Below, piece by piece: positions 1-55,142 of a stretch of 55,197 nt of DNA. The notes under the pieces were generated by a model that was not told the DNA's origin, made no database searches, and worked only from the letters and a program-made list of their open reading frames with translations. This stretch comes from Euglena gracilis (Eukaryota). The stretch covers positions 33,705,455 to 33,760,651 of the forward strand of contig CP154954.1 of assembly GCA_039621445.1 (NCBI GenBank), given 5' to 3'. Made by a program: the position numbers and the translations under genes. Position 1 is the stretch's first letter. Each line of letters opens with the position of its first letter.

Positions 1-25370
<25,370 letters not shown>

Positions 25371-42126: not shown

Positions 42127-42252
42127 CAGGGTTTGATATAAGGACAGGTGGGGGGGGTGGTCCGGACCCCCCCCCCTGCGGGCCAGGAGGGGGGGGGGGG
42201 GGGGGGACACCCCCCACCTAAACCATGTACGCCCTCCTTATATCAAACCCTG
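42127..42252. mobile_element. 126-bp deletion-derivative hAT-like MITE
   Basis: Perfect TIR CAGGGTTTGATATAAGGA; perfect TSD CTCGGGGT. Confidence 0.92.
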
Positions 42253-42348: not shown

Positions 42349-45300
42349 TCAATGCGACTGCCCCACCGAAGGCGGAAGGCACTCCACAGCAGGCTGGTCC
42401 CCATACCCCGGTGGGCTCTTACGTACCCTGGAACCAGAATGCCAAATTCAACTTGGGATTGGGTTGCGCTGGGATGATTGAGGAGGTCGAATTTTTAATT
42501 GGTCGTCAGAAAATTTTTTTGTCGTTCGCTGCACAGAGAAAAAAATTCTTCGGGTCTCCTGAAACACAACAATTTTTTTTTTCGTTTGCACTTGCGCCAC
42601 AACTGAATTGCGACTGAATTGCCTCATGTTGACAGTTCGCATCTGCTGCAAGGAATACCAAGGAATCCAAAACCACCAGCTCTGTGTTGGAAATTGGGCC
42701 TTTTATTTTACCAATTTCCCGGCCCCTCCCTGCCGGCTGGTGCCCGGCCAGGGGGGTGACCAAGGGACTGGCCTGGGCGGTGAGGGCCGCAGCCAGGGCC
42801 GCCAGGCCGCTCATCGCCGTGAACGGCAGCATGAGCCGCAGCAGCCCCAGGTCGGGGCTCAGCGAGTTGCTCCACGAGAACAGCGGCCCCCACACGGCGG
42901 TGCCTGCGGGGAGGGGAAGGGGGTGTGGTGGCGGGGGCAGGGGGGGGGGGGCCCGCCTCCCAATCAAGGGGCGGGGGGGGGGGCTCCTTCCCGCCTCAAC
43001 GCCAGACAGCCCTGGGCTCTGCGGGGGACGGCCGGTGCCTCAAATGAGGCACTCACAGCTCTGTGGGAAATGGAAAACCTATCAGCGGGTTTCCATTTGG
43101 GGGATGGGCCAGCAGAAAAACAGAAACATGCACCAGCACATGCGGCAGTGAACCTGTGAACAAAACAACGCCACAAATGCGGGGACGCATTTGCAGACCC
43201 AACGCGAAACCACTGCCCCGGGAGAGGCGGTTGCGTCAGGTGGATGGAGGGGGGGACCGGCGGTCCGGCCCACGGCGACCAACACCGCCGCCACGCCGTT
43301 GGCGCGGCCGCGGACGCGGTGGGGCACGGAGTCGTTGATGAGGATGAAGACGAACGTGTACGCGGCCTCCGTGCTGACGCTGAGCAGCATGAACGCCGCC
43401 GCGGCTGAGGGGTGGGGGGGGTGGGGGGGCTTTTGTTGATTTTTTTTTGCGGATCCGACAAAACAAATTTTTTTTTGCGGGGGACAAAACTTTGGGACTT
43501 CCCCCCCCCCAGGCACATTCATTGGAAACACATTCAATTTCTGTGAGGACCATTCCAAAATGTTCACGGTCCTGAGTCCTTTTTCTCCACCTGACCCTCC
43601 CATCAATGCCATCAAAAATTACTTCGGCACTTGAGGCTCCGAACGAAAAAAATGGCCCAAAAATCTGGAAACACGAGAAGGGATGGTGGCAGGGCTGTAC
43701 GGGAAGGGGGCGGCTGGCACGGGAGGAAGGAGGTGGGGGGGGGTCGACTCCCCCCCACCACAGCACCTTGCAAGAAGAAATTCCTTTGGTGCCGAAGGAA
43801 AAAGTTGAGAAAATTGCCCCCCCCCCCAGAAATATGGGAAAGCCTGGTTGGGGTTCGGGGTGGTCGACCCCCCATAGGGTTCCGGGGATTCCTGCACAGC
43901 CCTGCCCCAACCTCAAAGCCGAAGGACTTCCTGGAGGGGGCCCTGCACCCCTCATTCGCCCCCCGGGGGGCCCTGCCCCACGGGGGGGGGGCAAACTGGG
44001 CCAGAACCGAAGTTAGCGCCGGCCATAAACAGACAAGAAGCCTCCGTGCGACTGAGGGAGGGAATGGGACGGCGGCGGGGCGACCAGCGCTGCGGGGAAG
44101 GCAGGGGAAGGGCGGGGCACCGGCGGCGGCCTCCGCCCGCGGGGAGTGGGCCCGGCCGGCGAGGGACCAGAGCGGCGCGGCGAAGGCGTTGAGGGCGAGG
44201 GCGCCCATCGCGAGCCGGAACGCTGCGGTGGGGGGGCGGGAGGTGTGTTGGGGGTGTGGGTGGGGTGTGTAGCCCCTCCCCGGCCCCTTGGTCCCCGCCT
44301 GCCGACTGCGGGCACTCCGAGCCGCCATGGGGGTGGCCCTCTGCCTCGGGGGGGCCAAAAGCTACGCAAGCGAGTCTCTGAAATCAGGGGGGGAGACGTA
44401 CACTGGTGGGGTGTGGACCACCGGGGGGTGGGGTGTGTGTGAGGTGACCGGACCTTGGCGGCAGCACAGCCGTCGCGTGAGCCACGGCACCAACAACAGC
44501 TGTGACCCGATCAACGCAGGGCCTGCAGGGCAGGGGGGGTTGCCATGTGGGGTCACAGCAGGCTTTGATGGAAAGGGCGGGTGGTCGGACCCCCCTTCGG
44601 TCCAGGGGGGGGGGGCCCACCTAAATAAAAACGCGGTCTTGGCAACTGATTTCGGCCCGGCGCAAAGCGATTTGACCACCCAAAACGGCCAAAAATGCCA
44701 TTTTGGGCACTTTTTTTGGGCAAAAATTTGGCAAATGCAAAAAATTCTCGGCAAGAAGCGCCGGAAGGAAAAAATGACCTTTTTGGGGGGTCCCGGGTAT
44801 CCCCCCAGGGTCGGTCCGGACCCCCCCTGCCAGGTGGGGGAGTTGGTCCAGACCCCCCCTTCTCCGGCCTTGGGGGGACACTCCCCCACCGAAACCCCGT
44901 CCTCCTTATCCCTGGTCAACAGGGGGTGAATGGGACGGCAAAGAGGGGGATGTGGGTGCAACGCACAAATAGGACCGACGTCAGGATTGCCGGCCGTTGA
45001 TGAATCGGCATCGTCACCAACATCTAGGACAGAAATATGCGCTCCATTGCCAGGCTTTGCCAGAGGGAACATGGCATCAACCCTCATTGCTGGCAACGTA
45101 CTTGCGCCAACCATTTACTGCCCATCTGGTGTATCATTTGATTTTTTGGAACTTGTTAATATTGTTTCGACCCTTTGCCGACCATCCACGATAAGCACAC
45201 CAGTGAAAGCCATGGCGGAGCCCAGCTGTGCAGCAGAAAACCCAAAGCCACCATGGGGGTGGTCCATGATGACCCACTGCCAGGTCCCGCCTTGTAACAC

Positions 45301-48300
45301 CCAATGCAATTTGGCAGGAGAATGTATGCACAAAACACTGATCACACCAAACAGTTCACAACAATACACGTAACATATGCATGAACCATGTATACATGCG
45401 CACACACAAACACATAGCAAAAACAACAGCAGCAGGAAGCACCAGCAGCAAACAACGACGAGCAGTGTTGTTGCAATGACGAGCATTGTTGCAGCAGCAT
45501 CAGCAACAACTGCTTGTTGCTGCAGCAGTTGTTGCTGCAGCAACATCGTAATTGAGTTATTGTGCTATTGTGAGAGTTATGATTTGTTTTCTCTGTTGTT
45601 GCCACTGCTGCTGTCACACATGTTCTCTTGATGGCATTGGCACAAGGAAATGCCTGCCCACAGGGGGAAGAGCTCTTCATATCCGATGTGGCATACTCCC
45701 AACATACAGTACAGCGCGCTGCTGACTAAAAAGAGCAGAGGAGGTGACGCCAGATGGTACTTCCTCGTCACAAAACAGAAGATAATGTGATGCAAACTGG
45801 GATGATGACATATTCGATATTTACCCAAAATATTCATTTTGCAAAAATGCAAATTTTCATGCAAAAAAAGTTGCAAGTTCTGCAACTTGCATATCGCTTT
45901 GCATAAAAAACCGTGCATTGCATAATATCTATTGTGTGTAACCTTTTTTGGCCAATTATTGTGGCGTCTATGCAAGATCCTGGGACAGGTTGGCACACCC
46001 TGTGGGTGGAGGTGACCCGTGGGGGGGGGACCCAACGCTCCTCCCCCCAGGTGAGTCCTGAATTTTTTTTAAAAAAAAACTAGTAAACCCCCCCCAAATA
46101 TAAAACCCCCCGGTTTTATATTTGGGCGGAAATTTCAAGACCCCGAGGGGGGGTTTTATATTTGGGGGGGGGGTTATGTTCGGTCGGAAAATCAACTTCC
46201 CGGCGGGCTCCGGTAGTCACATTTTTGGTCCAAAATCACAAATACGCCCACCCTTGGGGGTCCAAAAACTTCATTTTTCGGGCGAAGGAGCAATTTTGAC
46301 ATTTTTTGGTAAAAATTGTTCCCAAATCTGCCAAAAAATCACAATTTCTGGAGAGAATTGTCGAAAAATTTTCCTTCCGGCGCTTCGCGCCGGAGGGGGG
46401 GGTTTATATTTGGGCGGGATTTCAAGGTCCTCAGGGGGGGTTTTATATTTGGGGGGGGGTTGTATTTGGGGGGGGGGGGGGTATATTTGGGGGGGGTTTA
46501 TGCGGGAAACTGGCCATTGTCATGAGAAGACAAATAAATGGTGCTAAAAAACTGAAACAGGACACACAGGTGGGTCTGGAGGAGTTGGGGGGGGGGGACT
46601 CTGGGCTGCGTTCAATCAAAACAAAACCTTTCTTGCAAACGGTTTATTCGGCCACGTGGCACTTTTGGAAACAAGAGGAGGGGTGCGCAACACCGGGAGG
46701 GCTGGAGCACACTTAACAATGCGGGGCGCAGTACCGGTTCCTCCACAGCGATCAGAGGGGCGGCCTCTGAAGGGAGGGAAGGGAAATGAAGGGATGCGGG
46801 GGCAGCAGAGAGTCCACCAGGGCCTTTCTAAAAGACCCCTGAGGCGAGGGCAGCTGGAAAAACGTGGTGGCTGCCGGTGGAGTCCAGGGAGTGGTCTAGC
46901 CGGCATCCAGCTGGACCTGGATGGTCGCCCCAAAAAACACGCAAAAACCCGAAAGAAACAGCCCAGATCCCACCGGCAGCCAGACTTTTGGAGGCCCTCC
47001 CAAAAAAACCACTCAAAGATAGGCAACATGGATAATTTTTGGACCCCTTTTTCAAAAAAAATTGGTCCAGCCCAGCTTTGCCGGGCTGGCCCAACTTTGT
47101 TTCAGCGGACCCCCCAGTGGGGGCTGGAAGCTGCTATTTTGGCTGATTGGTCCTAAGTGACCGACCCCCGGGGGGTTGGGAAATTGGTTTTTGAAGCGTG
47201 ACTGAAAGTGTAAGTGACCCCCTGTGGACGCCAGGGGTTTTCTTTAGCCAGAGGGACCCTGCCCACATGGGGGGGGGGTGGAGCCAGCCAGCACCTTTTT
47301 TCCAGCCAGCTCAAAATCAATGGATTTTGGCCAAGAACCCGAAAAACTTTCTGGCACCTTCGGCGCTGGGTGCTTAGACGGATGGGAATGCACTTTTCTT
47401 GTTGAGTCACAAAATTCTGGCAGTTTTAGTGAAAATGTGCATCCGCGCATTCTGGAAGCGGAGTGCGCAGGTGCAGATTCCGAATGGTTTGATGCCTCTT
47501 CCAGACTGTGTGAAAACACCACAAAAATGAGCTGTTTCGATTTAAAACGACAACAAAGACCACCCACTCATATTCTGCTTCAACTGCGTATCATGCTGTT
47601 TACAGCTGTTTCCCGACGACTGCGGTAGAATGCATGGCTGGACACACACTGTGCACACTCCAAACGACATGCGGAACACGGGCGACACAGGCCAATTTGG
47701 GCCTGGGTGTGCCACCTTGTGTTCACCAATGTGTGCTGATGGCTTCCGGGGGCAGGGCCTGGTGAACCCAGGATGAGCATGGGAAAGGACTCCTTGCAGC
47801 CAGAGAGGCACAGCCCTCCCAAGGTCAAAATAATAGGGGTGCCACTGAGTATCAAGGCCGAAGAATGCGCACCTGCGCATTTTTGGAAACCCAAAAGAAA
47901 TTTTTTTCGTGCTGCTTTTTCTGTGCATTCCACTGTGTCGCACCATGGGAAAATGGATGAGAAAGGGAGTTCAGTGCCTGAGAAAATTCCTCAGTGACGG
48001 GCACCCAAATTCCCAACTGCGGTCAGCAGCCTTTCATGGCATGAGTAAGAAGCTGGCGAATGCGCACATGCGCAAAAAAGCGTCCTGTGGATTTCTTCAA
48101 ATTACAGCCACACTTCTAAATTTTTGCACTCCCAGGTGGGCCTGCCACCACCCACGCCAACTCCCCCCGCCTGGCCTGGGTTGGAAACCACACAGCTGAA
48201 GTGTAGACCTCCCTGCGAGGATCGAATGGTGTCCGAGGACGAGGCAGCCCTGGAGCGAAACACAACAGAGGAGGACCACCACCTGGGGCCTTGTTGGCAA

Positions 48301-51300
48301 CGAACGTCATCCACCACACAAACACTTATTTATCATATACTGAGTGTCGACGCTCCAGCACTGAAAACAACACCACCCCTGGCCGCTGTGAAGACCAAGG
48401 AAAGCACATATGCACACACTTTCTGCACACACCCCATCCGCAATGGCTGCAGTCAAACATGGCACATCGGGATGAGTGCGCACGTGAACCCTTCTTGTGT
48501 CTCCCCTTAAAGCACCCTGGTAGGAGGTTGCCACCAGGGGTTTTTTTTAAGACCGGGGGAGGGGGGGGTCCCCCCACCCACCCCTGGGGGGCCCCCCCGG
48601 GGGTCCCGGGGGACCCACAAAAAAAAAGGCCGAAAAATTGCGAAAAATGCTAAAAAAAAAGCACTTTTCAAAAATTTTCGGCGCCTTCGGCGGCAAAAAG
48701 TATATCCCACCCCCCTCTGGGGGGACCCCAGGGGGGGGGGGGGCTCGGCCGGACCCACCCACCCTACGGGGGTCCACAACTGAAAAAAAAACCCTGGTTG
48801 CCACCAGGCTTGTGCTTAAGGACCCCGGGGGGGGTACTGGCTAGCCAATCGGCTAGACACTGGAAAAAATGGACTAGCTAAGACCCCCCCTCCCCAGGGT
48901 TCGATATAAGGACAGGGGGGGGGGGGGGTCCCGCCCCCCCCCCCTGGGGGCAGGGGGGGGGGGGGGTGGGGGGGGAAACCCCCCCCCCACCTAAACAGGT
49001 GCGCGGTCTGGGTTACCGAAAATTTTTGACCCCCAAAACGACCAAAAGTGCCATTTTGGGCACTTTTTGGGCAAAAATGTGCCAAAAATGCAAAAAAATT
49101 TTCGGCGCAAAGCGCCGGAGGAAAAAATTGACCATTTTTGGGGGGGGGGGGTCCCGGGAACCCCCCCCCCGAGGGTCGGTCCGGACCCCCCTGGCAGGTG
49201 GGGGGGGGTCCGGACCCCCCCTGCGAGCCAGGGGGGAGGGGGGGGTGGGGGGGGACACCCCCCCACCTAAACCATGTACGCCCTCCTTATATCAAACCCT
49301 GGCCCTCCCCCCCTGGGGGGTCCGGGGGTCCCCCCAACTGGAAAATTTTTTTTCCTCCGACGCTGCGTGCCGAGGTGGAAATGAGGTTATAGGTTTTGGG
49401 CTGGTTTTCTTCCAAAAATTCCCAAAAATGGCCAAAAACGGGCATTTTTGGCCATTTTGGGGGGTCCCAAAAAAAATTTCTGGCGCTTTGCGCCGGTCAC
49501 TGGAAAAAAAATTTCCACCAGCCAGCCCTGCTAGCAGACCCCCCCCTCCGGGGGGTCTGCTAGAAATCCCACTAGCCAAATTTGGACTAGCTGCAGTCCA
49601 GCCCCCCCCCCCCCCCCGGGGGGGGGCTGCAATCCCTTAAGCACAACCCTGGTTGCCACGCAGGGCCATGCCAAACAACTCGGCACACAAGGTGGAGGCA
49701 CAGCCCAGGAGACAGGGTCTACCGCAAAAGTGGAATTTTAACATTTTGGTTACCTCTGTGGAGGCTCCGCGGAGCCTCAAGGTAACCAGCCTCCACGGAA
49801 ACTAAGGTAACCAGCCTCTGCGGAGGCTCCAAGGGAACCAGCCTCCGCGGAGGCTAAGGTAAACAGATTTGCCAGGGCATGTTGTGAACATGGAAATGAA
49901 TGGGAATTTTTTTTTTGTGTTATAAAGAGAAACATTATTCAATGTCAAACACGGCGACTGCACTCAGTGGCAAATCATCCACTTCCGAACTTGTCAGAAC
50001 CTGTCTGTTTTCTGCCCATTTGCACAGAGGATACAAAAAATTCACGGACTTTGGGTGGCAACAATAGAGCTTAAAACGAAAAAGAAAACGAATTCATTCA
50101 GCCAGAATTACAGCAAAATTATCCAGAGGCCAGAATTGTACCCAAAATTGTGACCCTGATGGGATTTGTCTCAGCTTTTGAGCCCGGATTGCACTGGAGT
50201 GCATCGTCTACAAGGAGAACTAACAGTCACACAGGGGGAGGTGGCAAGCAAACTGCACGTCAGCACAGATGTCATGTTGCAAAAAAAAGGTCACGTGAAA
50301 TCCAAAGTGGCGTCCATTTATCTGTGCCGGGGGGAGGGGGGCAGGGGGGGGGGGGGCACCTGCGGCCCCTCCCCCCCGGACCCCCCCCTGCCCCCACCCC
50401 CCTTCCCTTCTCCCACCTACCCCCCACCCCCCCCCCTCCCCCACTTCCCAATAACAACATCCTATTATGTGGACCAGGGGTTTTCTTAAGGACCCCCCCG
50501 GGGGGGGGGCAGCCTCCGGCTGGCAAAAAGGCTGCTGGCTGGAAATGAGCTGCTGGCTGGACCCCCCCCCCGGGGGGATAGGGGGGGTCCGGGGCTGGAG
50601 CAGGCTGGGCTGGGCTGGGTCGATGAAAACCAAAATTTTCTAACACATTTTTTTGCCGTTTTCGACATTTTGCTTGATGGATCTGGATCAAGGCTGGGGG
50701 GCTGTGATGGAGGAAGCTGTAATGAGGGGAAAAATGCAGGGATAGGTGAGCTGGGCAGCCCAGTTGGCTGGCCATCCTGCGGCCGGCTGGCCCGGCCTCC
50801 GGCCGGCTGGACCCGACTTTATTTCAGTCGACCCTGGGACAGCCCAAATTTAGGCTGCTGGCTGGATTTGAGCTGCTGGCTGGCTGGCCCCCCCCCCCGA
50901 GGGATGGGGTGCCCTCCGGCTTAAGAAAACCCCTGGTGTGGACAAAATTTGGCGGACATGGCGCAAATGGCAAATGGGTAAACAATAAAGACAAAATAAG
51001 GCGGACATGTCGTTTTTGTGGGAAATGGATAAATGGTTTCGAACAAGTTTGGCGGATATGGCTTAAATGGCAAACGGGTGAACGGTCTGTGCTCATCAAC
51101 GGACATGGCGTTTTTGTGGCAAACGGGGGGGTATGGGGACGTGTGTGAGGGAAAAATAATTTTGTTTTTTGTGGGGACGTGGGCGGTGCTGGAGTCTAAA
51201 CAAAATTTAATTTGTAAAAGGATATGTGGCAAAAATAAAAAAAACGTCAGCCAGGTTTGTACAAGCTCTCCTGAGCAACATGCACCTTTTTGTTGTGGAG

Positions 51301-54300
51301 TTGGGTGAAAAAATTAAAATAAAATTCCTCTTCCTCTGGGCACCAGTGTGGGTGAAGTGGGGGGGGGGTTGGCGCCAACCCGTAAAACATTTCTTTTTCA
51401 TTTTTTTGGCCCGCGTACAGAATTGGTTGCCTCTGCGGATGCTCCAAGGAAACCAGCCTCCATGGAGACTCTGAGGTAACCAGCCACCGCGGAGCCTCTG
51501 AAGAGCCTCAAGGAAACCCGCCTCCGCGGAGACTCAAGGTAACCAGCCTCTGCGGAGGCTACCAGCCTCCGTGGAGGTTCTGAGGAGGCTAAGGTAACCA
51601 GCCTCCGCGGAGCCTCCGCGGAGACTAAGGTAACCAAAAGTTAGGATTCCACATTTGCTGGGACCCCAGGAGACATACACCCGACTTTGGCGGCATCCAC
51701 CTGTGCAATGAGATGCCACTGAAATCGCTGCCAAAAGGGCCAGCATGCCACAATGCTGTGCTGGCACTGGGTTCGGGTTTCCAAGCACAACTCCCCACAA
51801 CACAGGGAGTGCGCACCTGCGCACTCCCCCTGACGGAGTGCGCAGGTGCGCACTCTTGTGGATGCCTAGCGCTGCTCCCCTCCTGCTCTCCTGCAGATAG
51901 AATCACAGCCAGCCAGCGAAGGTATGGCCACAAGAGTGTGCACGTGTGCATTCTTGTGCTTCATGCAACCTCAGAGAGGAGCCGTTTTATATCGTTTGTG
52001 AGGGCTGTTCTGGAGGGTGCAATCTGTTGCAGAGAGGATTGAAGCGGGGCTCCGCTCCATAGCTTTTAAAACCAGTGACACACAGGAAAAGAGTGCAAGC
52101 CAGCCCCCCCCCTCCATACCCAGCACCCCATCCCAAACGTCAGACCTAAACACAGGTGGCCCCACATGGTGGTGTGCCGTGGTGCCTATGAGAAGGCACA
52201 TGCGGAGAGGACGGCGTACGCCACTGGAAGATGCTGTGCCTGCATGTGTCGCAGAGGGGTGCAGTGCACCGTGTGGAATGCAAACAGCAGGCAGCCGGAA
52301 GAGGGTAATGAGCCCTCCCTACAAATATCTAATGTGAATTTAAACACCACCACTCTCTGAATGCAGACTACACGCGTACACGCACACCAAACATTCACTA
52401 GCGCCCCCTCGTGCCCTGCTTCCAACACAGGGCACAGAACCTCAGAGACCACGGTGATTCCTTCCCACAACCACCGGGGGAGCCACAACAAACGTCCAAA
52501 AAGACGCCAGGAAAAGACCAGGACGGGGAGGGGGGTGAATGCGCACCTGCGCATTCACTGGGCACCACAAAACAGGGGGGACAGCAACGGGTACAACGGC
52601 TTCACCTGACCAGGGTTCGTCCCTGTGAAACAGCGTTTTGTGTCGCACCTCTTTTGGCAGAAGGGGTTTCCCCCCCGGTCGGCGTAGGTGGTAAACTGTC
52701 ATTTTCAAAACGAAAAAAGTCGGTTTACCCAGGAAAAAACCCAGGGGTCGAAGGTAATGGTATCCATTATTGTACCACGGGTTTCAGCTGACGAGTGCAC
52801 CGCCCCGTGAAGTGATGGCAACGCAGTTGGTGAAAAAAGAATGCGCAGGTGCGCAAAAAACCACCAAAAATGAAAAGTACATTCCCGGCCGTCTAAGGGG
52901 TGGCCACTTTCGGCCAATCCTGGCGACCCGCCCGGGGGGGGGGGGTGAGTCTGGAGCAGCCGTTCATTTAGTGCGCATCACAACTTCGTTGCGATACACA
53001 AATTTTCCTTGGGTGATACACAGGTGATACACAAAAATCTTCGATGTGATGCACATATTTTTGGCTCATTCTTTTCATCGGAATGCAAAAAATTTTTCAA
53101 AGGTCTGGCTCTCTTCGGGCGGCTGAAGAATAAATAAAATCCATCACTTCGACTAAGGAGACATCCTCGTTTCGCGGGAACCAAACCCATTGTATTTGAA
53201 ATATCCTTCAAACCGCGGAAGCTTTGGGCTTCGCTTCAAACAAGAATGCAAATTACTTTCCGGTTCACCTTCTTCTGACCCCAGTGGGGGTGGGTGGTCA
53301 CCGCTCTTCCAAAAAAAAAAAACCAGTCACTCACTTCTTTTCGGAAAACATGGTCGTGGAGGGATCGGCCAATCCGGAATCTAAGGGAGAAAAAAAGGCA
53401 AAAAATTTTCTGGCGCCTTTGCCGTCAGGCCGCTTTAGTGGTTTTTTTTGCCGCCCCCCCCCCCCCCCCAGCGGAGGGGCCAAAAGCCAGTCAGTCACTC
53501 TGGGAAAACTAGTCACCCATGTTTCCATCACGACAGATGCAAAACAAGGAAACATTGGATCATTCTGTTTTTGCCACATAATCACCGAAAGATGACAAAG
53601 ATAGATATTTCTGGCATTGGTGCTGAGCGAAAACAAATTAAAAGTGTATTTTCTATATTATATTTGATATTGAGCAGGGGTTTCTTTGAGGACCCCAAGC
53701 GTGCCGATCAAGACAAGAAACAGAAGAGTGCTGCATTCGCTGCAGCGGGAGAAATAAATAAATGGTAAGCATTACAACGTTAAATTTTTCTATGAGAAAA
53801 ACATATTTTCTCAATTTTTGGTGATACACAAAATGATACACAAAATTTTTTGAATGATACACAAGTGCTGCACAATTTTTTTTTTGGTGATACACAGTGT
53901 TACACAAAAATTTTTGATGTGATGCACATGATACACAAAAAATTTTGGTGAACACTAACTGAATGTGTGGTCTAGAGCCAAAGACCAGTCGGTCACCCCC
54001 CCCCCCCCCTGGGGAGTCAGATACCATAAGCAATGGTATGGTCCACACACCAGGCCCAGCTCCAGGCCACAAACCAGGCCCAGCCCACCAAACATCACAC
54101 TTCGGAGTCAATGCCGATGGCAGCCCTTCTTTAAACCCGGGCCCTCAAAATTGGAATCCTACCTTTCTGGTTTCCTGATGGAAGGAAACCAGGAACTGGG
54201 AAGACTCCAGGTGGCCAGGTGACCAGGTGACCGGGTTGTGTCCCTGAAGAAAATCCAAGTTCAACCCACACAACACTGAGGGTCGCCCAGGGTATTAAAT

Positions 54301-55142
54301 GAGCGGAGAGCGGAGGGGGCAGACTGAACCCTCTTCCCCCAGGGAAGGGGTGAGACCCCCCCTTTGCAAGAAAATTTTCGGTGCCCCAAAATGCGTTTTT
54401 TTCGCACTTTGTTTTTGAAAAATCGGTCAAAACATAAGCCATGATTTTCATCTTTTCTGGCGCAAAGCGCCGGTATTTTTTTTTTTGGTTCAGGGGGTCC
54501 CTGACCCCCCTGGTCGGAAGGGGAGGGGTATGACCCCCTCCCCCCTCTCCGCAAAACCACCATCACTTAACACCCTGGGATCGTCCTTCAGCCACAAACC
54601 TTTGCCGAGTTTCCTGTGTAGGGGCAGGGACTCCGGCAGGCAGAAGAAGGCGAGGGCAAGGCAGCCTAAACCGGCTGGGGGGCCGCCCTCCCACCTCAGA
54701 CACTCAGAAATATACGCCTTTGACATCAACAAACGGAACACCCCCAGGTGACCACTGCTTCCATCACATTTCGCCGACCATCCTGAAATTCTGTCAATCA
54801 AGTTGCTCACCATGCCCCCCCCCCCTCCCCCCCAAGCAAGCATCTATGACGGATTCCGAATTTTATCACCAAAAGTCGGCAAAAAAAAGCAGTCAAAAAA
54901 ATCCAAAAAGATCAAAAAAATGGCCGAATTATAGTCACAAAATGGGCCAAAAAGGAGCAAAAGAGACGTGAAATGGCAAAAAGTGGCAAAAAGTGACCAC
55001 ATGAGCCAGATGAGCCAGGAAATCTGGGGAAAAATGAGCCTAATTCCTCAATTTCACCGAAAAATTGGCATCAATTCGGAAAAAGTTGTGTGGTCAGCAG
55101 CGGTCGGCTGCGTTCGGCAACCACCTATTACAATCACCAAAG
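42349..55142 (-). CDS. Major facilitator superfamily transporter (ZIFL/DHA1-like), C-terminal half; 5' part beyond right edge
   Basis: Exons: 55142-55125?, 54665 (or 54674)-54600 (GCLALAFFCLPESL), central-loop exons unresolved, ~45725-45660 (SALYCMLGVCHIGYEELFPL), 45275-45201 (WVIMDHPHGGFGFS), 44522-44454, 44222-44121, 43404-43258 (INDSVPHRVRGRANG...GRTAG), 42903-42779 (WGPLFSWS), 42384-42349 (ECLPPSVGQSH*). Confidence 0.82.
42385..42778 (-). other. Nonconventional intron (MFS, last intron)
   Basis: ACC|GCC-CAGGCCAGTCCC...GGGACCAGCCTG-CTGTG|GAG; 10/12 paired ends; in frame to the stop. Confidence 0.72.
43258..43404 (-). CDS. MFS transporter exon
   Basis: tcag|AAAAFMLLSVSTEAAYTFVFILINDSVPHRVRGRANGVAAVLVAVGRTA-G|gtcccc. 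Confidence 0.88.
44559..44914. mobile_element. Degenerate hAT-like MITE (GATATAAG family)
   Basis: Internal similarity to 48895-49301; CAGG...CCTG ends. Confidence 0.7.
45276..45659 (-). other. Nonconventional intron (MFS) with residual 8-bp TSD
   Basis: T|GGG-CAGGCATTTCCTTGT...ACAAGGCGGGACCTG-GCAGT|GG; flanks of the CAG..CTG core are CCTGTGGG / GCAGTGGG (6/8). Confidence 0.72.
46080..46505. mobile_element. pogo/Tc2-like MITE (TATATTTGGGGG subfamily)
   Basis: TIR TAAACCCCCCCAAATATA; partial relative at ~32050-32270. Confidence 0.7.
48535..48796. mobile_element. hAT-like MITE
   Basis: CAGGGGTTTTTT...AAAAACCCTG; perfect TSD GTTGCCAC. Confidence 0.88.
48805..49651. mobile_element. hAT-like MITE (GCTAGC-rich family) with nested MITE
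   Basis: TIR CAGGSTTGTGCTTAAGG; perfect TSD GTTGCCAC. Confidence 0.9.
48895..49301. mobile_element. hAT-like MITE (GATATAAG family)
   Basis: TIR 15/16; TSD CCCCTCCC/GCCCTCCC; empty site visible in paralog 23612-24054. Confidence 0.9.
49715..51666. mobile_element. Mutator (MULE)-like non-autonomous element
   Basis: Perfect 9-bp TSD CAGGAGACA; imperfect TIR of 40 bp or more (GGGTC..GCAAAWGTGGAAT..TAAC..TTTTGGTTACC); GGTAACCAGCCTCCGCGGAG subterminal repeats at both ends. Confidence 0.78.
50475..50935. mobile_element. hAT-like MITE nested in the MULE-like element
   Basis: Perfect TIR CAGGGGTTTTCTTAAG; TSD ATGTGGAC/GTGTGGAC. Confidence 0.9.

Follow-up and report, generated by a model that had tools for sequence, protein, structure and literature searches.

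A nonconventional intron in an MFS-like gene of Euglena gracilis and its probable origin from an old CAGG-terminated insertion

Nonconventional introns make up the majority of Euglena introns. Here we describe one of them, 384 nt long, located on the minus strand of a gene resembling major facilitator superfamily (MFS) transporters in Euglena gracilis. The gene lies in a stretch of 55,197 nt from contig CP154954.1 (assembly GCA_039621445.1); this whole stretch was analysed and is called the window, and its numbering is used throughout. The ends of the intron are probably the decayed footprint of an old insertion that terminated in CAGG and was flanked by an 8-bp target-site duplication (TSD).

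The closest described systems are other euglenid nonconventional introns. In the portions of the published reports available to us, their splicing code was defined through knock-in mutagenesis as 5'-N3CDG...CH'GN5-6|R (Nomura et al. 2025, PMC12501133), and CCAGG was placed at positions +3..+7 and CCTG at −9..−6, with terminal folds in the range of −10 to −2 kcal/mol (Gao et al. 2024, PMC11170887). The border rules of Milanowski, said to hold for the majority of such introns, ask for a pyrimidine at the end of both the upstream exon and the intron, a purine at the start of both the intron and the downstream exon, and C as the third nucleotide of the downstream exon (PMC4770533, from the portion available). 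Our intron shares with euglenid nonconventional introns the CAG at +4..+6, the CTG at −8..−6, the 3-nt and 5-nt spacers, and the purine of the acceptor exon. It also has no pyrimidine tract, ends other than GT/AG, a “slidable” repeat, and conventional introns in the same gene, and its ends may pair. Nothing essential sets it apart; position three of the downstream exon carries G where the older model favours C, the helix beside CAGG/CCTG is broken by a 5x5 loop, and the flanking repeat (five exact nucleotides, 6/8 overall) is longer than that of most nonconventional introns.

A second point of comparison is gapC intron 4 of E. agilis ACOI 323, a recently gained, strain-polymorphic nonconventional intron that carries direct repeats of eight nucleotides (Milanowski et al. 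2016, PMC4770533). In the accessible part of that paper, the authors interpret the repeat as a mark of break repair and not as a TSD. In both introns, a direct repeat of 8 nt stands where exon and intron meet. In gapC the repeat is complete and the intron is polymorphic and recent, as far as the accessible text goes, whereas ours matches at 6/8 positions and is present in both haplotypes seen. Introner elements and other transposon-derived introns have been reported from Micromonas, dinoflagellates and Fritillaria (PMC11282704). If our intron originated by insertion, it would have in common with introners that a transposon with terminal inverted repeats (TIRs) and a TSD becomes an intron, and that one TSD copy leaves with it, giving a scarless mRNA. 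Introners, however, are spliceosomal, with splice sites taken from the element or the TSD, whereas our intron has structure and the CAG/CTG code, without GT-AG. Earlier publications describe flanking direct repeats, propose TSD-like repeats and a derivation of nonconventional introns from MITEs (miniature inverted-repeat transposable elements), the latter in a hypothesis of 2014, and report one recently gained intron with an 8-nt repeat. An explicit link of a concrete MITE family to the 3+5 splicing code was not found in the open-access literature (subscription journals were not covered).

The intron and its parts are as follows.

45276..45659, minus strand: nonconventional intron of 384 nt; placed in the N3-CAG...CTG-N5 register, it starts with GGGCAGG and ends with CCTGGCAGT
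45660..45725, minus strand: upstream exon, ending with ...SSALYCMLGVCHIGYEELFPL and the T of a split Trp codon
45201..45275, minus strand: downstream exon, GG of the Trp codon followed by VIMDHPHGGFGFSAAQLGSAMAFT and G
45654..45656, minus strand: CAG at intron +4..+6, within CAGG 45656..45653, identified from the sequence and agreeing in position with the published consensus
45281..45283, minus strand: CTG at intron −8..−6, within CCTG 45284..45281 (−9..−6), identified from the sequence and the published consensus
45642..45647, minus strand: 5' arm of the second helix, CCTTGT, after the 5-nt loop strand CATTT; pairs with 45295..45290 in terminal mini-folds
45290..45295, minus strand: 3' arm of the second helix, ACAAGG, before the loop strand CGGGA, from terminal mini-folds
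45657..45664, minus strand: upstream copy of the flanking repeat, CCTGTGGG, its first 5 nt exonic and its last 3 nt forming the N3 spacer
45273..45280, minus strand: downstream copy of the flanking repeat, GCAGTGGG, its first 5 nt forming the N5 spacer and its last 3 nt exonic

Positions 43000-50000 were aligned with two transcript-like contig sets (X1 and X2), with raw RNA-seq reads (X21, of which ~5% was read), and with a DNA-like contig set (X20). Fifteen joints were listed, and 407 further ones exist. The joint 45272->45657 skips exactly 384 nt, with 5 ambiguous letters, and gives LFPLWVIM. It was carried by one X1 contig, one X2 contig, and 11 raw X21 reads (6+5, with 10 distinct starts), and by none of the contigs (0) in X20. 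Four further joints of this gene, reading GT..AG on the minus strand, come from the same contigs; the X2 contig, a 1399-nt record, carries four such GT-AG joints. The depth of raw X21 reads was 0 in the intron-interior bin 45340-45573, versus 2.2-3.8 in exon-bearing bins. The scarless LFPLWVIM is the junction used in RNA.

On the minus strand the upstream exon reads ...GAG CTC TTC CCC CTG TGG, onward into GCAGGCATTTCCTTGTGCC..., and the sequence continues up to ...TTACAAGGCGGGACCTGGCAG, beyond which the downstream exon reads TGG GTC ATC ATG GAC CAC CCC CAT GGT GGC. Seen on the plus strand, CCCACTGC (45273-45280) is followed by CAGG (45281-45284), and CCTG (45653-45656) by CCCACAGG (45657-45664); the stem consists of CAGG-N5-CCTTGT (45281-45295) facing ACAAGG-N5-CCTG (45642-45656), with the second helix beyond the 5x5 loop. 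RNA contigs cover the upstream exon over 45657-45725 (X1 record 5 and X2 record 8), its upstream bound being the GT-AG joint 45725->46713. The downstream exon is covered over 45200-45272 by X2 record 8, and the joint 44521->45200 becomes GT-AG after a 1-nt shift of the cut.

The removal of 384 nt can be placed in six equivalent registers (minus-strand start 45661..45656), every one of which yields EELFPLWVIMDHPHGG. Their ends are GT..CA, TG..AG, GG..GT, GG..TG, GC..GG and CA..GG, so that GT/GC-AG occurs in none. We set the upstream exon's 3' end at 45660, within a possible span of 45662 to 45657, by the register of the published code. In that register, 45659..45276 reads GGG-CAGG...CCTG-GCAGT|G and satisfies the N3-CDG...CHG-N5-6|R code. 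Four of the five border rules hold (T, T, G, G), the third nucleotide of the downstream exon being G, not C. The 10+U7+10 terminal fold of the intron has −5.7 kcal/mol, a value within the range reported for nonconventional introns; the gene's six GT-AG introns gave 0 to −1.9. The terminal mini-folds pair CAGG with CCUG and CCUUGU with ACAAGG. The 384-nt element is very likely a typical, efficiently spliced nonconventional intron.

The sole conventional option is a GC-AG intron at 45657..45277, 381 nt long, which would be spliced by the spliceosome or by a dual mechanism, as an “intermediate” intron, and would give PLWWVIM. The GC and the AG are present and in frame, and a similar ambiguity has been discussed for intron 5 of E. 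gracilis tubA. All the RNA support listed, however, is for the 384-nt skip, the 381-nt joint being absent from the 15 joints listed (407 further exist). The last 30 nt before the AG contain 13 pyrimidines (6 of them C), versus 20-27 (12-22 C) in the six GT-AG introns, and the intron has no polypyrimidine tract. We rejected the GC-AG reading on the RNA joints and the missing tract, and we regard it as extremely unlikely; a minor or rare GC-AG isoform may exist beside the 384-nt form. The first-pass annotation of the window, made from the letters alone, had proposed a nonconventional intron with a scarless LFPL-W-VIM junction, no sliding to GT/GC-AG, and an extra Trp in the GC-AG option, and the six registers and the 384-nt skip in X1, X2 and the 11 X21 reads bear it out on each of these points. 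The CAGG...CCTG core, the stem CAGG-N5-CCTTGT and the 6/8 flanks were all found where it had placed them. The mRNA with PLWWVIM, which it had named as a finding that would speak against it, does not occur among those 15 joints.

The CAGG...CCTG core occupies 45656..45281 on the minus strand, between CCTGTGGG and GCAGTGGG. Analytically, the probability of at least 6/8 in a given register is 0.0045. The match of the intron flanks peaks at register 8 and does not exceed 4/10 for any other k between 2 and 13. The two mismatches are confined to the intronic N5 portion of the downstream copy (2/5 positions), as would be expected from drift following an insertion. A TSD is a plausible but unproven reading of the 8-nt flanks.

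Another explanation keeps the nonconventional intron and denies the TSD. The 6/8 repeat would then be due to chance and the reader's selection, or to microhomology or duplication from double-strand-break repair. We consider this rather unlikely. It draws on the 10,882 arbitrary CAGG..CCTG pairs of the window, 1.2% of which reach 6/8, and on the authors of the gapC case, who, in the accessible part of their paper, favour break repair for the 8-nt repeat (PMC4770533). On the other side, part of each repeat copy is intronic, so that coding constraint cannot keep the identity. Moreover, nonconventional splicing needs no repeats, since non-slidable and fully synthetic introns are also spliced, according to the portion of the mutagenesis study available to us (PMC12501133).

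The register of the repeat is also that of other elements in the window. We scanned the window for CAG...CTG pairs with matching 8-nt flanks and pairing ends, with an arm cut-off of 13/18, and found at least 11 MITE-like elements with CAGG...CCTG ends, 126-847 bp in length, whose TIRs agree at 14-18/18 positions and whose TSDs match at 6-8/8.

1545-1827: MITE-like element, TSD 8/8
2209-2679: MITE-like element, TSD 8/8 (G-run)
15613-16345: MITE-like element, TSD 8/8 (G-run)
23612-24054: MITE-like element, TSD 7/8
24994-25259: MITE-like element, TSD 6/8
42127-42252: MITE-like element, TSD 8/8; 126 bp, TIR 18/18, the smallest and most perfect
48535-48796: MITE-like element, TSD 8/8
48805-49651: MITE-like element, TSD 8/8
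48895-49301: MITE-like element, TSD 7/8
50475-50935: MITE-like element, TSD 7/8
54288-54577: MITE-like element, TSD 6/8

The TSD is complete (8/8) in six of the 11 elements, two of the six lying in G-runs. Over the 11 elements, the flank identity was 92% at k=8 versus 32-49% at each other k from 2 to 13. The TIR consensus past CAGG is GTTTTATTTAAGGACC. In X20, the summed depth, which is not a copy number, was 10^4-10^5 in the bins bearing these elements versus ~30-60 for unique sequence. The intron has in common with the elements the CAGG/CCTG ends abutting an 8-nt repeat, and its length lies within their size range; that its repeat stands in the exact 8-nt register of 11 TSD-bearing elements speaks against a repeat of any other origin. 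The full nonconventional code was satisfied by 15 of the 22 element-orientations. Since 3+5=8, this code would remove exactly the element and one copy of the TSD. The CAGG-ended MITEs may have an affinity to hAT transposons, to judge by the 8-bp TSD and the CAG-type termini. Merlin is the other candidate superfamily for an autonomous partner; families of it with 8-bp TSDs are reported from E. gracilis, but with termini given as 5'-GG (PMC8101967).

The intron's 5' end resembles one of these elements. Over the terminal 13 nt it is almost the same as the TIR of the element at 23612-24054, and eight of the nine positions that follow CAGG agree. The same score was reached by 11 of 640 other CAGG sites, of which nine look like further MITE ends, which places the likeness at an empirical level of 0.3-1.7% per end; this, too, argues against a non-TSD origin of the repeat. 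A degenerate 13-nt motif occurred five times versus 0.27 expected, the motif being derived from the intron itself and so not independent. Two stretches, 14177-14189 and 17932-17944 (minus strand), are like the terminal 13 nt of the intron (one mismatch each to the degenerate motif) and could represent termini of related elements or of further nonconventional introns.

Several observations weigh against an insertion origin. The repeat matches at just 6/8 and was picked by the reader as the best case of the window, which weakens the chance figures by an unquantified factor. In E. agilis, 84.4% of the introns, conventional and nonconventional alike, have short direct repeats at their borders (“slidable” introns, PMC12501133), and a repeat alone is therefore not specific to a TSD; this also favours the non-TSD explanation. 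So does the intron's 3' end, which scored 3/9 and bears no likeness to any MITE TIR, and so does the interior, which is without MITE likeness and has no second copy in the 55-kb window; diverged copies may exist elsewhere in the genome. A family-wide TIR matrix ranked the intron ends 61st and 419th among 662 CAGG sites. The arms agree at 11/18 positions by our own count, which is under the 13/18 cut-off of the scan, and the pair was not listed by it. In X20, the intron is found on one 843-nt contig at a depth of 31.8, the same as that of its unique neighbours, and the empty-site DNA form was found on 0 contigs of this one DNA-like run. As to the pairing of the intron ends, two results are less favourable: the 26+26-nt terminal fold (−20.0) was equalled by 84 of 1000 shuffles, and the minimum free energy (MFE) structure of the whole intron pairs the exonic CCCCUGU with the 3' flank, without the canonical CAGG/CCUG helix.

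Membership of the intron in the TIR family as a whole was rejected on the matrix ranks of 61 and 419 of 662; the likeness to one subfamily remains. We dropped the full-length RNA fold (z-score −2.2; 2 of 100 shuffles folded as well or better) as support, given that the canonical terminal helix is not reproduced in it. The interior of the intron (45417-45618) contains many GCAGCAACA-type repeats, which form perfect 13-14-bp hairpins and dominate this fold. The GC content is 0.456 at 45001-46000, versus 0.663 and 0.535 in the adjoining 1-kb windows.

A second haplotype or strain, represented by X20 and low-depth X1 contigs, differs over 45194-46036 at 13 positions in 843 nt (~1.6%), evenly spread. 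Six single-nucleotide polymorphisms (SNPs) fall in the 384 nt of the intron and five in 311 nt of the adjoining conventional intron. This divergent haplotype also has the intron, which must therefore be older than the split of the haplotypes. These data bear on the possibility that the intron is a still-mobile or very recent MITE on its way to becoming an intron, which has in its favour the recognisable 8-nt flanking repeat and the CAGG/CCTG ends. We find it very unlikely. The interior is unique, the depth is that of single-copy DNA, X20 holds no joined DNA contig, and the intron predates the divergence of the second haplotype. The contrast with the elements of the window is plain as well: their arms agree at 14-18/18 and their TSDs at 6-8/8, versus 11/18 and 6/8 in the intron, their bins have 10^3-10^4 times higher summed depth, and the 3' end and the interior of the intron are unlike theirs. 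Thus, the first-pass description of the locus as a transitional form between MITE and intron is not sustained. The intron is probably an insertion of old date that has become fixed and has decayed; judging by the window and the one DNA-like run, it is neither mobile nor multi-copy nor polymorphic. The 8-bp TSD that it had also proposed fares better in part. The register shared with the 11 elements and the TIR-like 5' end are in keeping with it; the match of only 6/8, the 3' end without TIR likeness and the lack of a second copy in the window are not.

The origin and the removal of the intron can be pictured as follows. Long ago, a small DNA transposon (CAGG...CCTG, 8-bp TSD) would have inserted into the target CCTGTGGG, within codons for Pro-Leu-Trp-Val. 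In the pre-mRNA, judging by the published code and the terminal folding, the ends would pair, CAGG with CCUG and then CCUUGU with ACAAGG past the 5x5 loop. Following the same code, the nonconventional machinery would cleave three nucleotides before CAG and five nucleotides past CUG. These cuts would take out the element together with 3+5=8 nt and restore the RNA without a scar. The expected mRNA, lacking exactly 384 nt, would have ...CCC CTG T joined to GG GTC ATC..., which is the form observed in RNA. The intron would probably be released as circular RNA after the conventional introns, by analogy with reports on other nonconventional introns; the joints listed include no back-splice joint. 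Since the insertion, two of the five intronic positions in the downstream TSD copy would have changed, one terminal repeat would have decayed, and the interior would have become unique.

A wider proposal, which we regard as possible and put forward tentatively, is that the nonconventional code mirrors, in RNA, one transposon superfamily with CAGG...CCTG TIRs and 8-bp TSDs. Nonconventional introns would then be its decayed copies, 45276-45659 among them, the latter keeping 6/8 of the TSD and half of the terminal repeat. Taken by itself, our intron is one more nonconventional intron, and its value comes from the context of the window, where MITE-like copies that are still fresh, ending in CAGG/CCTG and flanked by 8-bp TSDs, occur beside a transcribed nonconventional intron that agrees with them in geometry and in part of one terminal repeat. 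If the proposal is true, any CAGG-ended MITE in an exon, in either orientation, would be removed with exactly one TSD copy, and would be a ready-made scarless intron. The 2014 hypothesis of a MITE origin would gain a concrete, testable correspondence between an element and the code. Were this correspondence to hold genome-wide, it would offer a simple answer to the origin of nonconventional introns and to the odd rule of 3-nt and 5-nt spacers.

The host gene has seven mapped introns on the minus strand. Six are conventional GT-AG introns and the intron described here alone is nonconventional. Two conventional introns served as internal controls.

45726..46712, minus strand: conventional intron of 987 nt with GT-AG borders; its joint occurs in X1, X2 and 12 X21 reads; ends GTGTGC..TTAG; 24/30 pyrimidines before the AG
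44523..45200, minus strand: conventional intron of 678 nt with GT-AG borders; its joint occurs in X1, X2 and 13 X21 reads; 20/30 pyrimidines before the AG

Two loose contig ends locate the next exons at 54602 and 42902, and both introns concerned slide to GT-AG. Judged by its translation, the spliced frame resembles an MFS transporter in its C-terminal half. Database support comes from a single 48-aa exon, which matched Pfam MFS_1 with an E-value of 0.013 and 14.9 bits, below the 33.4-bit cut-off, and a single-exon scan of NCBIfam gave no match. A word search with the 48-aa exon returned 189 candidate relatives, none of which scored. The exhaustive search gave two matches, both uninformative: a 2206-aa protein (seven stretches) and a 128-aa fragment with 51% identity that begins downstream of the junction. 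According to the first-pass annotation, the spliced product may match the W-x7-GG spacing of ZIFL-type MFS proteins, a family-specific spacing expected after TM7. The 25 longest open reading frames of the window, considered with a transposase in mind, are mostly P/G-rich and repeat-like.

The first mapped intron of the gene (46767-54599, minus strand) is a conventional GT-AG intron of 7.8 kb with at least five of the MITE-like elements inside, one of which begins at 54577, 22 nt within the 5' splice site of the intron. The predicted stop codon of the gene is at 42508; the element at 42127-42252 is ~260 nt downstream and may lie in the 3' untranslated region. At 48527-49659, the elements 48535-48796 and 48805-49651 stand in tandem, with three copies of the 8-mer GTTGCCAC between and around them, and the element 48895-49301 is nested within 48805-49651. 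X20 also contains, at high depth, the joined form 48531->49661, in which 4 other letters intervene and which looks like a paralogous empty site. Finally, unpaired sites with a 10-14/14 match to the MITE terminal repeat (CAGG starts, on either strand) were observed at 3673, 17207, 23263, 31119, 34522, 35316, 41914, 47232 and 53675, and are probably fragments or older copies.

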